DNA of 64,000 nucleotides from an uncultured Pseudomonadota bacterium (GTDB taxonomy: Bacteria; Oederibacteriota; Muellerivitia; Muellerivitales; Muellerivitaceae). The stretch lies in assembly GCA_963836235.1 (NCBI GenBank), contig CAWIIP010000005.1:32001-96000 (forward strand), given 5' to 3'. The notes below the pieces were generated by a model that saw only the letters and a program-made list of their open reading frames with translations, made no database searches and was not told where the DNA came from. The translations under genes and the position numbers were made by a program. This document shows positions 7,555-17,872 of this stretch, one piece after another; positions within the stretch are counted from its first letter, which is position 1; every line of letters starts with the position of its first letter.

Positions 7555-9420
7555 TTAAAACCCAAATATTCCCTTCACCTTATCGGTAGCCGATTTGGCG
7601 TCGCCCGCCGTGCTGACCACGCTTTGATATTCCTTCACGCCATCCCCAAGGGCTTTGAGCGGGTCCTCAGCCTTCGACACCCCATTCCCCGTGTCACTCG
7701 ACGTTACTTTATTTGGATTAGCTGATGAGACACCTTTGCCTGAGTGAGGAGTTGAAACCCCTTGATTCGTCGCAGCCACCCCTTGGCCGCTATCGCGACC
7801 AAGGGCGATAGAACCCATCGAAGCTTGCCCCACGGCTTGAGCCGAAACGGCTTCAGCCGGTTCCCCTTTGGAACCGGCACTGCCTTGGCTTTGGCCTCGG
7901 CTAGCGGCCTCGTCCAAGGTGGTTTGGACACTCGCTCCCCCTGCGCTCATGTGGCTTTGGGGGACAGGCTGGGCAACTTGTGGTTGGCCGCCAGCGGGGA
8001 CGGATGCCCTCACGCTACGACTGCGCAGGTAATCCGTTGCCAGGTGGAAGAGGGACACATACAAATGGGGGCTCAACAGGAAGATCACCACCAAGGCCAC
8101 CAGGGCGGTAACGATCCAGCGTCGAACGAGATGAACCAAGGCCCGTTTGAGCTCGATGAGCAGGAAGGATTTTATCTTCGGCCACCACCCCTGAGCCGAG
8201 CCCGATTGTGTGGCTCCGGTACCGTCGCCACTCCGGCTCGGCACAACCAGGGCTTGTCCTCCACCTAGTGGGGTGGAGGACAGGTGGGCGGAGGCCACCA
8301 GCCGAGGCCCTTGCTTTGGGTGTGCCGGTTTCATAGAGGAACCGGCCCCCCGGATCGAGGCCCCAGCAGGCCCGGGTGTTTTGGATGGAGCAGGAGCTTT
8401 AGCGACGACCGAAACCTTTTCGGTAGCCGTTTTAGGCTGGACAGGCCGGCCTTCCGTTGGCTGAACCGGCGCAAAACCCTTGGCGGTGTAATCCTCCGGC
8501 TGTTTGCCCTGTTTGATCCAGGCCACGAACCCCTTCACGTCCGCCTCGGTCATGGCCTTGTCGCAGGCGATCTGAAGGGCCCGATAGAATAAATCCTGGG
8601 TTTCGGGTGGAGCGAGTTGGATGGTCCCGATAGGGGCCTCCCCCGGCTCCACAGCCGAGGCCTTTTTCTTTGGGCCCGGCTTGAGGCCCGTACCCGGGCC
8701 CAAAGCGGTCAGGCGGAACAGGGCTGTCTCGGAAATACCCCAAATTCCCTTATTATAATTATTCGGAATCCGAATAATTAAGGCCCTGGCTTCGGGGTTG
8801 ATAAGGGGTAATAGGCGGATGGCCCAATTCACTGACTCCAAACTCATGTCCAACTTGACCGCAACCAGGTCTTGGTTCAGGCTCGGATTGGCCCGGATGA
8901 GGTTCTCGACATCCTGGTAACCGGCCCACCAGCCCTTATCCCGTACCCGGTTGTCCGTCCGGCCGATGATGACCGCCTCTTCCTCAGTTGGGTTCTGGAT
9001 ACCCGCCGGAATAGTGGGCCTTTGAAGCCGCCGGAAGGCCTGGTACCGGGATTGGCCGCTCATGAGCCGATAAATGAAATCCGCCACCCTCCATGGTCGT
9101 CCCACCTGGGCCGAAGCCTCAAGCTGAGGTCCACTCTTTGGTTGTGCCAGTTCCAAAGGGGAACTGGCAAGAGCTAACCGGGGATTTTCCGGGTGCAGGG
9201 TCACCCCCGGGGCCAGGGGGCCGGTGGGCTCGGGCCGAAGCTTGACAGGGTTCTTAAGGCCGACGGCCTCGATATTGGCGGCCAGGTCGGCAATCTCCTC
9301 GTCGGAAGCGGCGGGGCCAGGATTGTCCGGGTTCAGGCGGATGTTGGCCAGGGGGACTTCCTGGGTGCCGGGAAAGAGTTCGGGCAAAAGGGCGAGAACG
9401 TCTTCAATGGATACGGGCAT
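7555..9420 (-). CDS. ParB N-terminal domain protein with HTH, low-complexity linker and C-terminal transmembrane segment
   Basis: VPLANIRLNPDNP...LAANIEAVGLKNPV, GxxRxxA motif (SGQSRYQA), HTH-like NQDLVAVKLDMSLESVNWAIRLL, TM WIVTALVALVVIFLL; GGAGG RBS before ATG at 9420. Confidence 0.75.
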   Translation of the reverse strand: MPVSIEDVLALLPELFPGTQEVPLANIRLNPDNPGPAASDEEIADLAANIEAVGLKNPVKLRPEPTGPLAPGVTLHPENPRLALASSPLELAQPKSGPQLEASAQVGRPWRVADFIYRLMSGQSRYQAFRRLQRPTIPAGIQNPTEEEAVIIGRTDNRVRDKGWWAGYQDVENLIRANPSLNQDLVAVKLDMSLESVNWAIRLLPLINPEARALIIRIPNNYNKGIWGISETALFRLTALGPGTGLKPGPKKKASAVEPGEAPIGTIQLAPPETQDLFYRALQIACDKAMTEADVKGFVAWIKQGKQPEDYTAKGFAPVQPTEGRPVQPKTATEKVSVVAKAPAPSKTPGPAGASIRGAGSSMKPAHPKQGPRLVASAHLSSTPLGGGQALVVPSRSGDGTGATQSGSAQGWWPKIKSFLLIELKRALVHLVRRWIVTALVALVVIFLLSPHLYVSLFHLATDYLRSRSVRASVPAGGQPQVAQPVPQSHMSAGGASVQTTLDEAASRGQSQGSAGSKGEPAEAVSAQAVGQASMGSIALGRDSGQGVAATNQGVSTPHSGKGVSSANPNKVTSSDTGNGVSKAEDPLKALGDGVKEYQSVVSTAGDAKSATDKVKGIFGF

Positions 9421-9636
9421 ACTGACCTCCACATAAGGGTTAACCAGCCTATGGGAGGAAGCCTACCGAATATTTTTTGGATTTCCAGAAGTTTCAGCGG
9501 CGGGAGACTTAAAATGCCTTTTCTCGGTCAGCTTTTAGGCAAAATTGAGACGATCAAAGGCCCTATAAGGCATATTATTATTTTATTATTTGGTCGCCTT
9601 TCAAAATACTTGTCCAACGTGGTCACAGTTTTGGTT

Positions 9637-10752: not shown

Positions 10753-11340
10753 ATGGCTCGAAAAATAGAATTTCATTACGATAACGCGGTGGATCAGGCG
10801 ATGCGGGTCTTTTGGGGTAAGGGATACTCTGGCGCGTCGTTAAAAGACCTTCTCAAGGCGATGAAAATTGGGGAAGGCTCCTTCTACAATACCGTCAAAA
10901 GCAAAAAGCAGCTCTATATTGAATGCTTGAATCGATATGGAGAGGTCGAAGCCAAAAAAAGACATTTGGCCTTAACATCAGCCCCGAATGCGCGTCTCGG
11001 GATGCGGGCTTTGCTAGGCGCTATGTTCGATTGTCTCGATGATCCGAAAAATCCTTCGTATCTTTGCATGTTCGCGGCAATGATTTCTGAAGATGTCATG
11101 GCTGATAAGGAATTAAAGAAAACTGCTGTTGCCACCGTTACTCACGCACAAAAGGTAATTGAAGATAAGCTTGATGAAGACAAGAAAGCGGGGCGTCTTC
11201 CTAAAAACTATGACTCACATACAGTTGCCGCTGTCATAGCTACTTACTGTCAGGGTATATGGCGTATGGCCATGATTTCATACAAACGGGAACAGTTCGA
11301 GCGCGAATCGGAAGCCTTTCTTCGAGGATTGGGTCTTTAG
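10753..11340 (+). CDS. TetR/AcrR family transcriptional regulator
   Basis: AMRVFWGKGYSGASLKDLLKAMKIGEGSFYN HTH; divergent from SDR. Confidence 0.93.
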   Translation: MARKIEFHYDNAVDQAMRVFWGKGYSGASLKDLLKAMKIGEGSFYNTVKSKKQLYIECLNRYGEVEAKKRHLALTSAPNARLGMRALLGAMFDCLDDPKNPSYLCMFAAMISEDVMADKELKKTAVATVTHAQKVIEDKLDEDKKAGRLPKNYDSHTVAAVIATYCQGIWRMAMISYKREQFERESEAFLRGLGL

Positions 11341-11437: not shown

Positions 11438-11467
11438 TTGTCCACAAAGGGTCCCCGTCGTGGACAA
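11438..11467. repeat. Palindromic intergenic repeat, copy A
   Basis: ttgtccacaaaggg-tc-cccgtcgtggacaa. Confidence 0.9.
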
Positions 11468-11484
11468 ACGCGAATCCTATTTAC

Positions 11485-12456
11485 TCAAGGTTTCTCGGGC
11501 GACCACTTGTATAACTTCAAGACTTTCCTGCCGCTGATCGTAACTGGTTCGCCTGTGTAAAACTCCCCAGTCTTTAAATTCGGGACTTGATAGTCCATAT
11601 GATCGAAGTAAGTTAATAAATTGAAATTTCTGTCGTAAATATAAAGCCGCCTTTTAGTGAAATCCTGCTCGCTTCCATCCGGGTACTTCTGGTTTTCGGT
11701 TTGAGTGGAATATTGGGCATAGACATTGCCAAAATCGTCGATAGCGAGAATTTCATTAAAACCGTAATGGTCCCCAGGGTGTTTATTATCCCCGTACCAG
11801 TGCGGCAAAAATATTGTTTTTCCCCCGACCTTGACCTGGTAACGCCCGTTAAACCCATGCTCACCCGTATAAGCCGAAGCAAAGATCTTCGACTTGATCT
11901 TGCCGGAGTCATATCCGTTGATCACGAACAGAATTCTTCCATCCTGCCAGGAATAAAAGACGCCGTTGGATAGGGAGTAATAACCCGGCCAAAGGCTACT
12001 CCCTTTGTCGTTCCATCCGGTTTGAACGAGTCCTTTGTCCCTATTCAGGACGTAAATCCGGTCCCCGTCCAAAACAAGAATATTGCCGATTTCATCCACG
12101 AATATTGTATTTATCTTATGAAGACCTTTTTCCGTCCAGCCCGGCGGAGGTTTCCAATCCAACCTCCGTGCCAATTTCCCGGTTTTGTCGTAAATGAGGA
12201 TGGAAGATCCACAAAAGAAATAAAGGTTGTCATTCACATCGAACTGGACCCTGAAATAGGAATTCTGATCAGGACAGGGGACGGTATAGAGGTCGTGCCG
12301 GACGTATTTTTCCTTGATTGGATAATTTTGGGGGGGCTGTTCGTAATAATCCTTGGCCTTCTCACGGAGGTCCTCCTCCATACCCCAGGCTTTGAAGGGG
12401 CAGAGGACGAGGAACACCGCCATCAGTAAGAGAATGTTTTTTATGCCGTACCCCAC
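11485..12456 (-). CDS. Hypothetical secreted protein with possible beta-propeller (NHL-like) blades
   Basis: Signal peptide ending KAWG; recurring motifs FDVNDNLYF, FVDEIGNILVLD, AIDDFGNVYA. Confidence 0.65.
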   Translation of the reverse strand: MGYGIKNILLLMAVFLVLCPFKAWGMEEDLREKAKDYYEQPPQNYPIKEKYVRHDLYTVPCPDQNSYFRVQFDVNDNLYFFCGSSILIYDKTGKLARRLDWKPPPGWTEKGLHKINTIFVDEIGNILVLDGDRIYVLNRDKGLVQTGWNDKGSSLWPGYYSLSNGVFYSWQDGRILFVINGYDSGKIKSKIFASAYTGEHGFNGRYQVKVGGKTIFLPHWYGDNKHPGDHYGFNEILAIDDFGNVYAQYSTQTENQKYPDGSEQDFTKRRLYIYDRNFNLLTYFDHMDYQVPNLKTGEFYTGEPVTISGRKVLKLYKWSPEKP

Positions 12457-12464
12457 ATTACCCT

Positions 12465-12479
12465 CCCCGTCGTGGACAG
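12465..12479. repeat. Palindromic repeat, copy B (right half only)
   Basis: ccccgtcgtggacag, abutting the RBS of the 323-aa gene. Confidence 0.85.
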
Positions 12480-12551
12480 GTCGTTTCAGGCTTTGGTAGC
12501 CAGCTTTATAAATTCATCATTTATAATGTTTATTAAACCTTGCCCATCCGG

Positions 12552-13493
12552 TCAACGGACTGCGGGTTGTCCCGTCTTTGAGTAAGCCAGCCTACCGCCG
12601 GCCTTGGCTACTTTGACCAAGGCCTTCCATTCCTCTTTCTCCTGGGCCGAACCAGCCTTTCTGAAACCCGCCTCCAACAGTTGCTTGACGAAAGTTCGGT
12701 AGAGGCCCTCGTTGGCTTCGCTCTCGTCCACCCAACCGCCCTTCCCAAAGGAGAAAACCCAGTACCAATCCACCCCCGGCGCAACCTCCTGCGGGATGAC
12801 CAGTACCTGCCCCCGGCCGTTGTCCGTGTCCTCCGGAATCAATCCCCGGGTAAGGATTTGGCGTTGGCTTAGGAAGTCCACGTCATGCACTTCCACTGCC
12901 CGGTAAGTCAACGTCCCCTCTTTTTCACCGTTATCCTGGTCGATGAACCTGAAATGGTTCTCGTCCAGGGTTACCACGCCAGTGAAAGTGACCCCTTCTC
13001 TGCCTTTTTCGTTTCCGAAATACCAGGCCCTCACAGGGTGGGCCTGGGTATCAATGAGATAAAGGTCGTCCAGGCTGCGCACTATGGTGAACCTTTGATT
13101 CCCAGCCGTAATGGGGTCAACCTCCAGGTTCACAGCGCAGTCTTTGCATCTTGTCTCTGAATAGATATCGGCCCCGGCCTGCACTTCGCTGACCGCCCCG
13201 GCACGCTCATGCCACACCAAACTGATTTGGATATACAACCCAAGTTCCTTCAACCGCGCCACCGCGGGGTCCCAATCCTTTTCGTCCGGGGATTGGGCTT
13301 GCTTCAACAGGGCCGGGATGTTGTTGCTTTGGGATATTCTCAAAGGGGTCATTTTCTGGCCTATTTCCGGTTTCATTTCCAGGAAGCCGCTGGACAGGCT
13401 TCCATCCGGGTTTAAAATCTGGCCACCCCAAGCCGCCGGACCCGCGACAGCAAAAACCAAAACAATCATCAGCGGATTTTTTATTTTCATCAT
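12552..13493 (-). CDS. Hypothetical secreted protein
   Basis: Likely start MMKIKNPLMIVLVFAVAGPAAWG (signal peptide) after a G-rich RBS; no family recognised. Confidence 0.65.
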   Translation of the reverse strand: MMKIKNPLMIVLVFAVAGPAAWGGQILNPDGSLSSGFLEMKPEIGQKMTPLRISQSNNIPALLKQAQSPDEKDWDPAVARLKELGLYIQISLVWHERAGAVSEVQAGADIYSETRCKDCAVNLEVDPITAGNQRFTIVRSLDDLYLIDTQAHPVRAWYFGNEKGREGVTFTGVVTLDENHFRFIDQDNGEKEGTLTYRAVEVHDVDFLSQRQILTRGLIPEDTDNGRGQVLVIPQEVAPGVDWYWVFSFGKGGWVDESEANEGLYRTFVKQLLEAGFRKAGSAQEKEEWKALVKVAKAGGRLAYSKTGQPAVR

Positions 13494-13575
13494 TTCCCCC
13501 CCATCACGGAATAAAAGCTTCACCCTGAGCAACCAATCATAGCCCAAAGTACTAAGCGGGAAGAGAGTCGAAGTA

Positions 13576-13592
13576 GTCCCCGTCCTAGACAA
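13576..13592. repeat. Palindromic repeat, copy C (degenerate right half)
   Basis: gtccccgtcctagacaa, 15/17 identical to gtccccgtcgtggacaa. Confidence 0.75.
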
Positions 13593-13600
13593 CCCTCACA

Positions 13601-14578
13601 TTATTTTTGGATCAAGCCGACATTGGGATGTTCAGCCATTGATCGGGCTTTTAATTGGCTCTCCATGGCCGGGCAAAGAAAAAGTAGCACCGCCATGATC
13701 AATAGGACCGGGGTGAGGTAACGGCTCCATCGGGCCGATACCTCATTCTGCCCGAGGATCTCCGTTTCAGTGGGTGGGTCCAACCCTTTTGCCCCGGGCG
13801 CTGGCAACCACCAGCAAGTGAGTCCCCAAGCGGCCAGAGCGGACAAAACCAACCCCGCTACCTTCCAAATATTGGAGGGCGCAAAAAACGAAGAATGAAC
13901 CGAAGCCGTCGAGGAGATCACGTCTATACCCAAATGCATCACCATGAATCCCCACAAAACGTTCCCTCCCCTCTCAAAGAGAAAGGCGGCGGGAAACGCA
14001 AGGACAAAGGACGTAAACATGGGGACCAAGATCGGTCTCAGATAAAAAGGGCCTGCTCCCGGAACATATCGACCGATATGGTAAGCCGACCACAGCAGGC
14101 CAGACAGGATGGACGCCCCAAAAAAGGACCGCCCAGACCTCAAAAATTGAAAAAGAAATCCCCGGAAGAAAGATTCCTCAAAAAGCCCCGCCATAAAGAC
14201 AAATTTAATCAAAGCGATAGTGGGGACTTGTCGGAAAGAAACAAGACCGGTTTTAGGCGCAATGAAGAAATCGCAAAAGAATATGGGAACCAGGGAAAGA
14301 AATCCTATGGCCAATTGCCTCAAAAGAGGTTTTTTAAAACCGAGGCACCCAAGTGTTTTGGACCAGGAAATGGATTTAAGGCTCTTGGTGAATAAGACGG
14401 TCAGGCCCATCAGGACAATGGCCGTAAGGATATTATGAATTTCCCAGAATGGCTCGTTCCCGGGGCCGAAAGGAATGAAAAACAAGTCCGCTGTTATGGC
14501 CAAAGGCAGCATGATGACCAATATGATGACCGACCAAAACAGAAGGGCCCAACGGAAGCGCCAATAAGACGGTTTCAT
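13601..14578 (-). CDS. CPBP family intramembrane metalloprotease (CAAX protease/Abi)
   Basis: EESFFRGFL, WSAYH, MHLGID motifs in a polytopic protein. Confidence 0.88.
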   Translation of the reverse strand: MKPSYWRFRWALLFWSVIILVIMLPLAITADLFFIPFGPGNEPFWEIHNILTAIVLMGLTVLFTKSLKSISWSKTLGCLGFKKPLLRQLAIGFLSLVPIFFCDFFIAPKTGLVSFRQVPTIALIKFVFMAGLFEESFFRGFLFQFLRSGRSFFGASILSGLLWSAYHIGRYVPGAGPFYLRPILVPMFTSFVLAFPAAFLFERGGNVLWGFMVMHLGIDVISSTASVHSSFFAPSNIWKVAGLVLSALAAWGLTCWWLPAPGAKGLDPPTETEILGQNEVSARWSRYLTPVLLIMAVLLFLCPAMESQLKARSMAEHPNVGLIQK

Positions 14579-14634
14579 GAAATGGACGCCCCCTTTATAA
14601 GCAACTTCATATCCATTGCCTCATCATATTACCC

Positions 14635-14660
14635 GTCCACGACGGGTCCCCGTCGTGGAC
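14635..14660. repeat. Palindromic repeat, copy D (perfect 12-bp arms)
   Basis: gtccacgacggg-tc-cccgtcgtggac. Confidence 0.92.
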
Positions 14661-14676
14661 AGATGAAATATTTTTT

Positions 14677-15414
14677 TCAAAGAATCCCGCTAAAACAATC
14701 CAAGATCGAGGCCTTGATGGGCATGAAGTACGCGTTTCCATCTACGGCAGTGATACGGCTCAAAACCGTCTCAGCAAATTCCCGGTTCCAGTCTAGTGTT
14801 GGCCTAAAATTCTCAGGAAACACAACTTTGTTTCGAGTCTCCCAATAATTTTTTGAACCGAGGCTTAAAACCGGTGAAACACCCCAAAAGACCTCATACG
14901 ATTTAAGTAACTCGGAATAAATGTCAAAGAGACGAATATCGAAAAAAGGTTGCGTGAAAAAACCATCGGCGCCGGCATCACGTTTGGCATGGGCATATTC
15001 GAGTTCTTTGTGAATCCCTTGGCGGTAAGGATCAAAGGCGGCATAAATCTTAATTCCGGGGATTTCCCGTTTGAATTTTTTGATAACTTCCAACACATCG
15101 GATGGGTACATTTTTCTGGACATGTCTTGGGGAATGTCACCGCTGATAACAATGATTTCTTTAAAATGATTCTCTTTCAGAAAAACGGCCATTGGCAAGG
15201 GTTCCTTCAAGTTAATATCAACGGCCCGAAAATGCGGTATCGCGTTTTGAAAATAGGGTTTCACATATCCGCATGCCACCCAGCTTCTTAAATCAAATCT
15301 CAATAAATCCGGAATGTTTATCGCGTTTACCTTCTTCAGGTTTTTTGAGATTTTTTCCACTTCTTCCAAAATGGATTCTTTACTTCGGGGAACCAATTCC
15401 AATGAAATTCTCAT
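14677..15414 (-). CDS. metF: Short methylenetetrahydrofolate reductase family protein
   Basis: ISLELVPR, INIPD, VISGD, AGADGFFTQPFFD. Confidence 0.8.
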   Translation of the reverse strand: MRISLELVPRSKESILEEVEKISKNLKKVNAINIPDLLRFDLRSWVACGYVKPYFQNAIPHFRAVDINLKEPLPMAVFLKENHFKEIIVISGDIPQDMSRKMYPSDVLEVIKKFKREIPGIKIYAAFDPYRQGIHKELEYAHAKRDAGADGFFTQPFFDIRLFDIYSELLKSYEVFWGVSPVLSLGSKNYWETRNKVVFPENFRPTLDWNREFAETVLSRITAVDGNAYFMPIKASILDCFSGIL

Positions 15415-15475
15415 AGTGTTTAACACCTGTTCCTAATGATTAAGCATCAACGCTTCATTTTCTGACGGCCCACCT

Positions 15476-15505
15476 TTGTCCACGACGGGCCCCCATCGTG
15501 GACAA
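15476..15505. repeat. Palindromic repeat, copy E
   Basis: ttgtccacgacggg-cc-cccatcgtggacaa. Confidence 0.9.
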
Positions 15506-15587
15506 GAGCCAACTCACCTTGACATTGACTAAGATAGTGAATTTATGAACCTGAAACCATTTTGAAATGGGGGGAAATCTCCGCTTT

Positions 15588-16796
15588 TTACGGCGAAACC
15601 CTCGAGGTCAACTTTCCCCCGTCGCCGTTGATATCCGGAACGACGGCGTCCAACAGGGAAACCTCGATATTGCCGATCACGATGGCGCTTTTAATCAGGA
15701 CCGGGATGTGCCGGTCATCGGCGGTGATCCAAAGGTCGATATCTTCCTTGTTCCGGAAAAGAGTCCCATACTTGATAAAAGGCTTGGCGTGTAAACAATC
15801 GAAAGTACCCGCGGGGCTCTTGATTTTTTCCCGGCCCACGATTTTTATGATCAGCTTGTAGTTTTTCCCACTCGAGGAAGTCGGAATAAGGTATTTCTTC
15901 CCCACTTCCATTGGAAAGAGACGGAAATAATAAAAACAGGAAATGACGTCCTGGGTGTAAGGCTGGATATCCATTTCCTCGATGGCATCCTGGTTATGCT
16001 GATGAACCAGTCGATGCTTGATCTGGTCATAGGATTCCCGGTTGCGGGCCTTGTAATCCCCCTCTTGGACGTCGTTCTGAAATTTCCAGGTGAGGTAATC
16101 CACCGAGTCGAAGTAGCTGGTTTGCACGTCGTTCACGGGATAAAAGGTGCTGAAAGGAAAAGCGGTCTTGGCTTTCGCCACCAAGGTATAGCAGGGCCGG
16201 TTGTCCACTTTCACGAAGTTTTCCACGGACAAAGTGGCGTAGCCCGCCAAGACCCCAATGGCCCGGACCTCGTAGGTCAGCCTTTCACCCTGGGCGAAAG
16301 CCTTGTTGGCCTTTGGCCGGGGAACCTTCTGAACATCCTTCTCGTCTTCGGACGAATCCGCTTCCGAAAAGGCCTGGGAAGGCTTGCTGAGAGCGACGGG
16401 AGTCGCCGACTTGGAAAGTTTTTGCAGGTAAGCCTGTCTTTTTTGGTCCAACTCCCCCTTATCGGGATAGTTGAGGGGATTGATGATTCTCAAAACCCGC
16501 CCCAGCTTAAGGGGTTTGCGGGGGTTCAAATGGTTTTGCCGGGCCAGCTTCCCCTTGGCGGATTCGGTTCCATAATAGGCCTCGGCGATAAATTCCAAGC
16601 TGTCGCCATTCTGCGCTTGATAGTGAAGAACTACCGTCCGGTCCATTTGCTTTTCTTGGGACTTCGCGTAAGGGGCCGCCGCGGGCTGCATGGAGGCGAT
16701 ACTGGTTTTACCCTGGGCCACGAACAGCAAGGAACAACCTTGGAGGAAGGGAAAACAGAGGAACAAAAAGACTAAAAAAATATATACCCGTTCCAT
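15588..16796 (-). CDS. Lipoprotein with LysM domain and DUF3108-like domain
   Basis: Lipobox LQGC; YQAQNGDSLEFIAEAYYG...LARQNHL (LysM); GERLTYEV, D..SCFYYFR, G.EKIKSPAGTFDC, LWITADDRHIPVLIK (DUF3108-like). Confidence 0.75.
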   Translation of the reverse strand: MERVYIFLVFLFLCFPFLQGCSLLFVAQGKTSIASMQPAAAPYAKSQEKQMDRTVVLHYQAQNGDSLEFIAEAYYGTESAKGKLARQNHLNPRKPLKLGRVLRIINPLNYPDKGELDQKRQAYLQKLSKSATPVALSKPSQAFSEADSSEDEKDVQKVPRPKANKAFAQGERLTYEVRAIGVLAGYATLSVENFVKVDNRPCYTLVAKAKTAFPFSTFYPVNDVQTSYFDSVDYLTWKFQNDVQEGDYKARNRESYDQIKHRLVHQHNQDAIEEMDIQPYTQDVISCFYYFRLFPMEVGKKYLIPTSSSGKNYKLIIKIVGREKIKSPAGTFDCLHAKPFIKYGTLFRNKEDIDLWITADDRHIPVLIKSAIVIGNIEVSLLDAVVPDINGDGGKLTSRVSP

Positions 16797-16822
16797 TCTT
16801 AAAAATCGGGAGATTTGAAGGT

Positions 16823-17872
16823 TCACTTCGGTTTGGATTCTTTTTTGATGTATTTTTCCATAGCTTCCAAAACCTCTTCCACCTTGATGGCGTCCATGGG
16901 GTCGTGAATCCCGCAAACACCCAATTGGCAATCAGGGCATTGGAGATTGCGGGGCATGAGGACCGTCGAGGTGTTTCCCCAGGGGCCCCATCTCACGGGT
17001 GTGGTGGCGTGGATCGGGCAAAAAAGGGCGACGGTAGGGGTCTTCACGGCCGCGGCGAGGTGCATGGTCCCGGTGGAACCCGAAAGGAAACATTCCGCCC
17101 TCTCATAAACCGCCGCCAACTGACGAAGGCTGCACTCCCCGATCAACAGCACGGGTTTTTGTTCCTGGCTAAGGCCCCGGACATGGGTCATCACCTCGGC
17201 AATAAGCGGGGTTTCGTCGGGACCGCCGGTAATGACGACCTTTCGACCCCGATAGGAAAGCTGGGAAATCGCCTGTCCGTATCGCTCCGGTTTCCAATTA
17301 AGGGCCGAGCCCTTGTGTCCGGGATGAACCACCACGTAACGCGCCCCATAAGCGATGCCTTTTTCCTTGAGCAGGTCATTGGCGAAAGACCTTTCGTTAT
17401 CGGAAAGGGGAAATGTAATTTTTTCCGCCCCGGGCGTTACCCCCAAGGGCCGCGTCAAGTCCAGGTTATATTCCACCTCGTGCCGGTCGCAGACGGAACG
17501 ATGGATATGCGTCTTTCGGTTCAGGAAAAAACTGTACCAGCGGTAGGCGGTTCCAATCCGGATGGGTATTCCCGCCATCCAGGCCGCGATGACCTGTTGA
17601 GGCCTGGGATAAAGGGTGATGAAAACATCCGGGGCCAGCGTTTTAAACCGGCTCGCCAATTTCCATAGGCTCTCTTCGGGATCCAATAATTCCACCGCGT
17701 TCACCGCTGGATGGTTTTGAACGATCTCCTTGGCATAGGAGCTGACCAATGCCGTGAGCCGGGCCTGGGGAAAGGCCGCCTTGAGCGTTTGGAACACAGG
17801 CAGGGACAAAAGAAGGTCACCGACCTTGTCGGTTCGGGCAACGAGAATATGTTTCGGGTTGATTTCGCTCAT
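16823..17872 (-). CDS. Glycosyltransferase family 9 (heptosyltransferase)
   Basis: RTDKVGDLLLSLP, VVHPG, STGTMHLAAAV.TPTVALF. Confidence 0.93.
   Translation of the reverse strand: MSEINPKHILVARTDKVGDLLLSLPVFQTLKAAFPQARLTALVSSYAKEIVQNHPAVNAVELLDPEESLWKLASRFKTLAPDVFITLYPRPQQVIAAWMAGIPIRIGTAYRWYSFFLNRKTHIHRSVCDRHEVEYNLDLTRPLGVTPGAEKITFPLSDNERSFANDLLKEKGIAYGARYVVVHPGHKGSALNWKPERYGQAISQLSYRGRKVVITGGPDETPLIAEVMTHVRGLSQEQKPVLLIGECSLRQLAAVYERAECFLSGSTGTMHLAAAVKTPTVALFCPIHATTPVRWGPWGNTSTVLMPRNLQCPDCQLGVCGIHDPMDAIKVEEVLEAMEKYIKKESKPK

Follow-up and report, generated by a model that had tools for sequence, protein, structure and literature searches.

The locus analysed here raises the question of what a short palindrome is doing behind each of a run of unrelated genes. 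These genes lie in the window, i.e., the whole 64-kb stretch of DNA that was analysed, which belongs to the genome of an uncultured bacterium (G000; 3.97 Mb in 5 contigs, C1 to C5). The initial annotation, made from the letters of the window, had proposed that the palindrome is a recombination or target site through which genes are added in tandem. Our analysis indicates that the 28-bp palindrome is probably the recombination site of a gene-cassette system like an integron or an island of dif modules. Comparison of genomes and metagenome contigs shows that units composed of a gene plus a site have been gained, lost, and transferred between genera, with their ends at the sites; a new cassette platform is the probable explanation, with a mechanism that we infer below. 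A further proposal is that this is a third independent cassette platform besides integrons and Xer/dif, served by a recombinase of a new family or by one not yet linked to cassette capture, and we regard its chances as slightly short of even.

In the window, a search with a 12-mer of the arm together with reading of the sequence revealed five copies of the palindrome, all within positions 11440-15504, and none in the rest of the 64 kb, in agreement with the initial annotation, whose coordinates were right to 2-12 bases. Arm matches with at most 1 mismatch numbered six, all at 11454-15503, when 0.21 were expected, and none of 100 shuffles reached six. On the strand of the genes (minus), the full element corresponds to TGTCCACGACGGGGACCCGTCGTGGACA, a 28-bp palindrome that can be read as two 13-base inverted arms flanking an asymmetric GA or, alternatively, as 10-11-base arms with a 6-8-base centre. 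Three of the five copies are two-armed, one is a half copy, and one is decayed. The plus-strand right arm had been described as kept in all five copies and the left arm as lost in two; both descriptions hold, the right arm being exact in three copies, with 1 mismatch at 15492-15504 and 2 at 13579-13591. Every interval between palindromes contains one minus-strand open reading frame (ORF), and the encoded proteins are functionally unrelated, as had also been noted: two without a Pfam family, an Rce1-like CAAX protease, and an MTHFR-like protein.

Following the direction of transcription, the array begins behind a resident LysM-DUF3108 gene identified by Pfam (15588..16931, minus strand), the final gene of a conserved heptosyltransferase/cytidylyltransferase operon. 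The first, promoter-proximal site (15477..15504, minus strand) is two-armed with the centre GGGGGCCC and lies 84 nt past the stop codon of this gene. It is followed by cassette 1 (14677..15426, minus strand), which encodes a small MTHFR-like protein of 249 amino acids with a weak Pfam match (PF02219, 31.4 bits), and by site 2 (14634..14661, minus strand), two-armed and perfect, which is a breakpoint in other samples. Cassette 2 (13601..14578, minus strand) encodes the Rce1-like CAAX protease/immunity-type membrane protein of 325 amino acids (Pfam PF02517, 47.3 bits) and is closed by the decayed site 3 (13564..13591, minus strand), which retains 13 of the 15 core bases, has lost its distal arm, and is not a breakpoint in other samples. 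Cassette 3 (12552..13493, minus strand) encodes a protein of 313 amino acids from its ATG without a Pfam family and with an N-terminus that by eye resembles a signal peptide. Site 4 (12451..12478, minus strand) is the half copy, in which the gene-proximal arm and centre are retained (12464-12478) and where the distal arm would lie, the following gene has its ribosome-binding region and start. This gene, cassette 4 (11485..12456, minus strand), encodes a protein of 323 amino acids, likewise without a Pfam family and with a signal-peptide-like N-terminus. The terminal site (11440..11467, minus strand) is two-armed, its distal arm being a variant (CCCTTTGTGGACA as read on the strand of the genes), and in another sample a breakpoint lies within it. 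A TetR-family gene identified by Pfam (10753..11340, plus strand) converges on the array end, and the same gene is found about 100 nt past a site in G001, the closest relative (L024 14078-14767). As a separate observation, a LysM-DUF3108 paralogue is located inside an array of contig 4 (G000 C4:141268-142530).

The initial annotation would have given up its proposal had the motif been dispersed among core genes. In G000 and its relatives the motif is clustered, not dispersed. The 15-mer core, with at most 2 mismatches, occurs 118 times in G000, compared to 8 for a reversed control, and 66 of 75 curated copies fall into 12 clusters of 2-14 copies, the other nine being solitary. Nine of these clusters are uniformly oriented; in the three others, one end copy scores opposite. 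With ORFs predicted by our own simple caller, the gene upstream of a copy was co-oriented with it in 61 of 66 cases, the distance from stop codon to site had a median of 18 nt (40 nt or less in 40 of 61), and the next ORF started a median of 62 nt beyond the site. Conservation is limited to the 28 bp and ends sharply. Bases 1-18 are near-invariant, a conservation that is partly built in by the search, bases 19-22 are variable, and bases 23-28 (TGGACA) are retained at 85-90%.

The same site is found across the bacterial family to which G000 belongs. An 18-mer allowing at most 1 mismatch was present in 26 of the 30 other family genomes and in the single sister-family genome available, and it was absent from all 68 genomes representing the 21 other families of the phylum and from viral contigs (0 matches). 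Among 40 relatives, the 15-mer was present in all 24 genomes of the family, which represent 17 genera, at copy numbers per genome from 0-3 up to about 100; the 99% complete genome G018 contained 112 core copies, while the 18-mer occurred 40, 20, and 15 times in G001, G012, and G022, respectively. The palindrome system is restricted to one clade.

The evidence that the units move, and that they break at the site, comes from comparisons at several levels. Within G000, C2:1195350-1196625 and C4:58803-57528 are 100% identical over 1276 bp from site to site, a unit composed of a site, a 377-aa (amino acid) gene, and a site, which belongs to one array on contig 2 and another on contig 4; as far as the sites, the flanking sequences are unrelated. 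Additionally, a two-gene unit resembling a toxin-antitoxin pair is 91% identical in two G000 arrays, and its homology stops after base 18 of an array-terminal site. Between genera, the cassette at G000 C2:1479155-1480012 shares 851 of 858 bases with G021; homology extends from the upstream site to about base 19 of the downstream site, where the distal arm and the flank differ. Since the Xer-like proteins of the two genomes are just 67% identical, this looks like a recent transfer of a single cassette.

At the window locus itself, gene content between the repeats differs among relatives, which bears out the gain and loss foreseen by the initial annotation. In G001, a member of the same genus, the operon preceding the array has a 77% identical counterpart, with homology reaching approximately window position 15522, just past the first site, and no site was found within 10 kb downstream of that operon. 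The MTHFR-like cassette is present in G001 (80% identical) at a different locus that is syntenic with G000 contig 2, beside a decayed site, and further cassettes are common to the G001 and G000 arrays in different orders. The operon is also syntenic in loci L009-L013, downstream of which nothing is common; in L013, an inserted five-site array separates two operon genes that are direct neighbours in the window.

Assembled Logan contigs of four metagenome runs (X1-X4), which cannot show rare forms, gave the same picture at finer resolution. The X3 and X4 contigs match the window over the CAAX protease cassette, cross the site at 14634-14661, and then differ from 14661/14662, while X1 has alternative continuations at 14661. 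From 11449 to the right, a contig of X4 is identical to the window, and to the left it continues with a different distal arm and flank, which puts the break inside the terminal site. By comparison, the decayed copy at 13564-13591 was crossed unchanged by contigs of X2 and X3, and the half copy at 12451-12478 by contigs of X2, X3, and X4, so that breaks were seen only at intact palindromes. Over the MTHFR-like cassette, the LysM operon, and the TetR side, the contigs of X2-X4 gave no coverage, a gap from which nothing is concluded. None of 13 loose-end 30-mers was found in G000 with up to 3 mismatches allowed, and the continuations are therefore not mis-joins with G000's own arrays. Taking 100 directed homology blocks of at least 200 bp and at least 75% identity between the array loci of six genomes, 101 of the 200 block ends fell inside a site (within 3 bp), compared to 2% of random positions, and 33 of the 100 blocks had both ends in a site; the breakpoints coincide with the repeats, as the initial annotation had predicted.

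These breaks can be placed within the element. Hybrid sites with an unrelated distal part depart from the consensus after bases 13-19 (46 cases). With P denoting the gene-proximal arm and centre, D the distal arm, and x and y unrelated flanking sequence, the array at C2:164698-168037 is joined to its surroundings by an x-D junction on the upstream side and by a P-y junction on the downstream side, the pattern that insertion into a secondary site would produce. Together, the hybrid sites and this junction pair map the exchange point to the site centre, bases 13-19 being the limit of resolution.

In the mechanism that we propose, the site would consist of 10-13-bp inverted arms and an asymmetric centre GGGGACCC, and a cassette would be one gene, sometimes two (toxin-antitoxin pairs), together with the site after its stop codon. 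Exchange would proceed by breakage and joining within the site centre and, because the break would fall there, the upstream gene would keep the gene-proximal arm and centre, and the following unit would take the distal arm. By insertion at a site already present, tandem arrays of one orientation would build up behind resident genes, and read-through from these genes into the cassettes would be possible. Copies lacking the distal arm are proposed to be inactive, which would explain why the genes flanking them stay together. Joining would be site-specific rather than homologous, a circular intermediate would be formed, and the enzyme would be one other than IntI, encoded elsewhere than beside the arrays.

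Several points weigh against this account. The most important concerns single-arm copies, of which 108 retain the gene-proximal arm and 7 the distal one, while simple insertion at secondary sites would give equal numbers. The gene-proximal half-site may therefore have a separate function, and this excess is the main unexplained fact. No recombinase adjoining the arrays or tracking the motif was found except for a single Xer-like gene, and 80 motif-bearing metagenome loci (335 kb) contained no homologue of a G000 recombinase except two RAYT-like genes (for REP-associated tyrosine transposase, REP being a repetitive extragenic palindrome) and one intron reverse transcriptase. The Logan contigs, given their blindness to rare forms, contained no deletion or circle joints and no empty-site joint. 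In principle, 28 bp of identity could support rare homologous exchange. Finally, the start codons underlying the spacing between sites and the following genes are approximate, as they come from a crude caller of our own.

The alternative that survives best, although we consider it unlikely, is that the palindrome is a protein-binding or RNA element of each accessory gene and that the shuffling is a by-product of homologous recombination between 28-bp copies. As a binding element, it could serve as an operator or for the loading of the ParB/Noc/KorB-like proteins encoded at array borders, the sole large family that recurs there. The window member (7555..9432, minus strand; 625 amino acids) is a DNA-binding protein encoded 2 kb past the array end, and further members in G000 are located at C1:368632-370986 and C2:1205629-1207404. 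The family occurs at array borders in G000, G021, and G023, and for 7 of the 10 members seen the stop codon is no more than 1 kb away from a site. These proteins carry a GExRYRA box, a helix-turn-helix (HTH), and a long disordered and coiled-coil tail, and the N-terminal 315 residues, for which a high-confidence model was obtained, match Noc, ParB, and KorB. The subfamily is limited to the motif-bearing family, with 13 of 30 other genomes positive compared to 0 of 68 elsewhere in the phylum, and the preferential retention of the proximal half-site looks as if this half had a role of its own. On the other hand, the subfamily was not found with this query in the array-rich genomes G001, G012, and G022 and was absent from the 80 motif-bearing metagenome loci, and a symmetric binder leaves the strict orientation and the asymmetric centre of the sites unexplained. 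The ParB-like protein was also considered as the recombinase itself and rejected, the predicted fold being a CTPase clamp that binds DNA and carries a disordered tail. PADLOC assigned it to no family apart from a 14.6-bit methyltransferase match in one paralogue.

As an RNA element, the palindrome could act as a hairpin at the 3' end of the mRNA. Perfect copies fold at -28 to -29 kcal/mol, and the hairpin of the first window site (15477..15504) reaches -29.4 kcal/mol (z -5.6). However, half copies cannot fold, as exemplified by the half copy at 12451..12478 (z -1.2), and no fold was obtained for the decayed site at 13564..13591 (z +0.4). The recombination half of this alternative meets its own difficulties: homologous exchange cannot yield hybrid sites with unrelated sequence, nor place cassettes at loci that are site-less in a relative, and block ends are confined to the site even where identity is 99-100%.

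A less probable explanation, which we would put at a small fraction of the total, is that the host's only Xer-type recombinase acts on the palindromes as dif-like sites, a situation known from integrative mobile elements exploiting Xer (IMEX) and from Acinetobacter dif/pdif modules. An 11-6-11 reading is possible, and the length of the site fits the dif geometry of two 11-bp arms and a 6-bp centre, although the junctions may fall anywhere in bases 13-19 and an 8-bp or 2-bp centre is equally allowed. One arm is conserved and the other degenerate, as is the case for XerD and XerC arms. The Xer-like gene (C1:328834-329895) has close orthologues (56-77% identical) not only in 23 of the 24 family genomes but also in G025 from the sister family, compared to 27-35% for the Xer proteins of other families, and it is the sole recombinase with this pattern; since a single clade is concerned, the co-occurrence with the motif counts as one event. 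The closest solved structures are XerA and XerD. Against this explanation, the Xer-like gene is preceded, at a distance of 2 nt, by another 28-bp palindrome that is AT-centred and differs from the cassette site (C1:329898-329925), with arms GTTCGGTATAT and the centre CTGTAA, and it recurs beside the Xer-like orthologue in G012, G016, and G004. Ten of its 11 arm bases are complementary, it is situated at the switch of gene-strand bias of the chromosome, where GC skew and strand bias put the terminus near C1:327 kb, and its arms bear no resemblance to the cassette site. This palindrome and the Xer-like gene are probably a single-recombinase Xer/dif module with the site beside the gene, an arrangement known from XerS/difSL. 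As the neighbouring palindrome is most simply its own dif, the Xer-like protein is a weak candidate for the cassette site.

The remaining recombinases of G000 fared no better as candidates for the enzyme of the cassette system. The genome encodes eight tyrosine recombinases. None is an IntI, the best TIGR02249 score being 77.9 bits against a cut-off of 265, which was passed in none of the 31 family genomes. Six are paralogous integrases of about 370 amino acids; four of them are directly upstream of tRNA genes, for which reason the six are read as island integrases and were rejected as the cassette enzyme. The seventh, apart from the Xer-like protein, has 425 amino acids. Two serine recombinases were identified, one of 515 amino acids and a truncated 278-aa copy located 35 nt from an array end, whose orthologue in G022 is also beside sites; this family was rejected as the general enzyme since it is present in only 8 of 24 family genomes. 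No IS110-type gene was found in G000. The recombinases that the initial annotation had suggested as companions of the motif were thus not borne out: IS110-type genes are lacking, RAYT genes do not co-occur with it, and the serine family is patchy. Its core idea is strongly supported, the comparative evidence marking the palindrome as the place where single-gene units are gained, lost, and exchanged; for its co-occurring recombinase, no candidate was found except the Xer-like protein, which has a different dif of its own. Apart from the question of the cassette enzyme, one of the ~370-aa integrases (from the set formed by G000 C2:1185612-1186715 and five paralogues) has orthologues 88-90% identical across six genomes, i.e., five other genera and G001. 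This is far above the 56-77% of the Xer-like protein and suggests that the islands have recently spread.

That the palindrome is an ordinary REP family disseminated by a RAYT (Y1 HUH) transposase is largely refuted and very improbable; the initial annotation had listed a clustered REP family among its alternatives. The palindrome is placed after genes, as REP elements are, and G000 encodes three Y1 genes, one of which passes the NCBIfam cut-off for REP-associated tyrosine transposases (88.1 compared to 80 bits). However, the copies are clustered, co-oriented, and bound mobile genes, inverted doublets are absent, no palindrome flanks the Y1 genes, the same sequence is kept across 17 genera, and a RAYT-like gene was not found in G018, G023, G001, G003, G013, G020, or G025. 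As an observation in its own right, RAYT-like Y1 genes with an HTH tail resembling DnaA-C/sigma-70 region 4 are abundant in G012 (20 matches) and G005 (12 matches), and several of them contain an in-frame TGA or TAG. An intrinsic transcription terminator common to these genes, suggested by a strong hairpin just past the stop codons, is the least credible option, since no T-run follows the site, a terminator scan called none of the five window copies, the sequence and not the pairing is conserved, half copies persist, and the element is confined to accessory arrays.

When the proposed cassette system is compared to known ones, integrons are the textbook route by which bacteria stockpile and exchange single genes. 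The G000 arrays resemble integron arrays, including sedentary chromosomal integrons and clusters of attC sites lacking integrases (CALINs), in their tandem, co-oriented units, mostly of one gene, each closed by a palindrome that resembles a recombination site; as in CALINs, no integrase is nearby. Further likenesses to integrons are the heterogeneous cargo, rich in toxin-antitoxin and acetyltransferase genes, the cassettes common to different arrays and taxa, and the insertion sequence (IS) elements and group II intron lodged inside. The differences are equally clear. The attC site measures 57-141 bp, has R''-L''...L'-R' boxes and extrahelical bases, and is conserved in structure rather than sequence. 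The site described here, in contrast, has 28 bp, is conserved in sequence, lacks the RYYYAAC/GTTRRRY ends, and gave no Rfam match, even at E<=1. No IntI passes the cut-off in the family genomes, there is no attI/Pc platform, and the arrays, a dozen per genome, begin behind many different resident genes. The initial annotation had held that the site is neither attC nor dif and that no integrase is present; attC boxes and length are indeed absent, the arms of the host dif are unrelated, and TIGR02249 is not passed.

In the orientation of its sites the system also departs from pdif. pdif sites alternate in orientation; here, all sites of an array are direct repeats, and the cassette site is unrelated to the host's own dif-like site. 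The dif/pdif modules of Acinetobacter are described as unrelated-gene modules bounded by 28-bp sites and assembled into linear multi-module arrays on the chromosome and on plasmids (PMC12907356). The cassette system shares with them one arm that is better conserved and, in the reading proposed here, an enzyme encoded elsewhere (PMC12907356). Unlike the Acinetobacter modules, G000 has one Xer-like gene and not XerC plus XerD. A literature search, which left supplementary files aside, revealed no account of the motif, and the only comparable systems that it returned were integrons and the dif modules of Acinetobacter; the matches to the motif sequence were limited to unrelated primers.

If the reading of the palindrome as a recombination site is true, single-gene stockpiling and exchange would have a further solution besides integrons and the narrower Xer/dif modules, one with which a dozen arrays per genome would be stocked and single genes passed between genera of an uncultured bacterial order. 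Should the enzyme belong to a new family, the system would be categorically new. Being short, conserved in sequence, and easily searched for, the site is a convenient marker of mobile genes in an uncultured lineage about which little is known, and a compact 28-bp site with its enzyme could serve as a recombination tool. The question raised is which enzyme acts on the site.

The cargo of the arrays is heterogeneous and rich in toxin-antitoxin genes. In G000, 78 ORFs within arrays match 102 Pfam families, none of which is represented by more than three ORFs. When 1241 ORFs from about 115 array loci were clustered, no family occurred in more than 11 loci; the most recurrent were two PIN families, MazF/PemK, MqsA, GNAT acetyltransferase, peroxiredoxin, SDR, and LOG-like proteins, with BrnT also among the recurrent families.

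Other elements lodge in these arrays. Copies of IS1380, IS66, and IS256 were identified in or beside them. A complete group II intron is inserted inside a site at two places in G000 (C2:1476562-1478501 and C1:223049-224988), the two copies being 99.8% identical. Its maturase/reverse transcriptase scored 412 bits, and the RNA domains RF02005 and RF00029 are present. The intron follows bases 18-19 and precedes the rest of the distal arm, it lies in sense with the cassettes, and its exon junction restores a normal site. Group IIC introns are known to home to attC sites and palindromes, and group IIC-attC introns use the bottom strand of attC, opposite to cassette transcription (PMC3001079); compared to what is described there, the G000 intron differs in its sense orientation and its position inside the distal arm (PMC3001079).

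Some minor observations concern the same genome and its relatives. An IS1380-family element occurs in G000 in at least six copies that are 98.9-99.8% identical, plus one of 88%, at C1:372053-373762 and at least five other places, and two copies of this family are in or beside arrays. In one small array (G000 C2:275984-277663), three repeats of 122-135 bp, 88-94% identical, each follow a cassette boundary and may represent a shared leader or promoter. Variant palindromes, of the TGTCCCC...GGGGACA type and with a GTCGAC variant, were found as the apparent target of one array (G000 C2:164698-164725 and 168009-168036) and in other families of the phylum (G039, G028). They may be the sites of sister systems.

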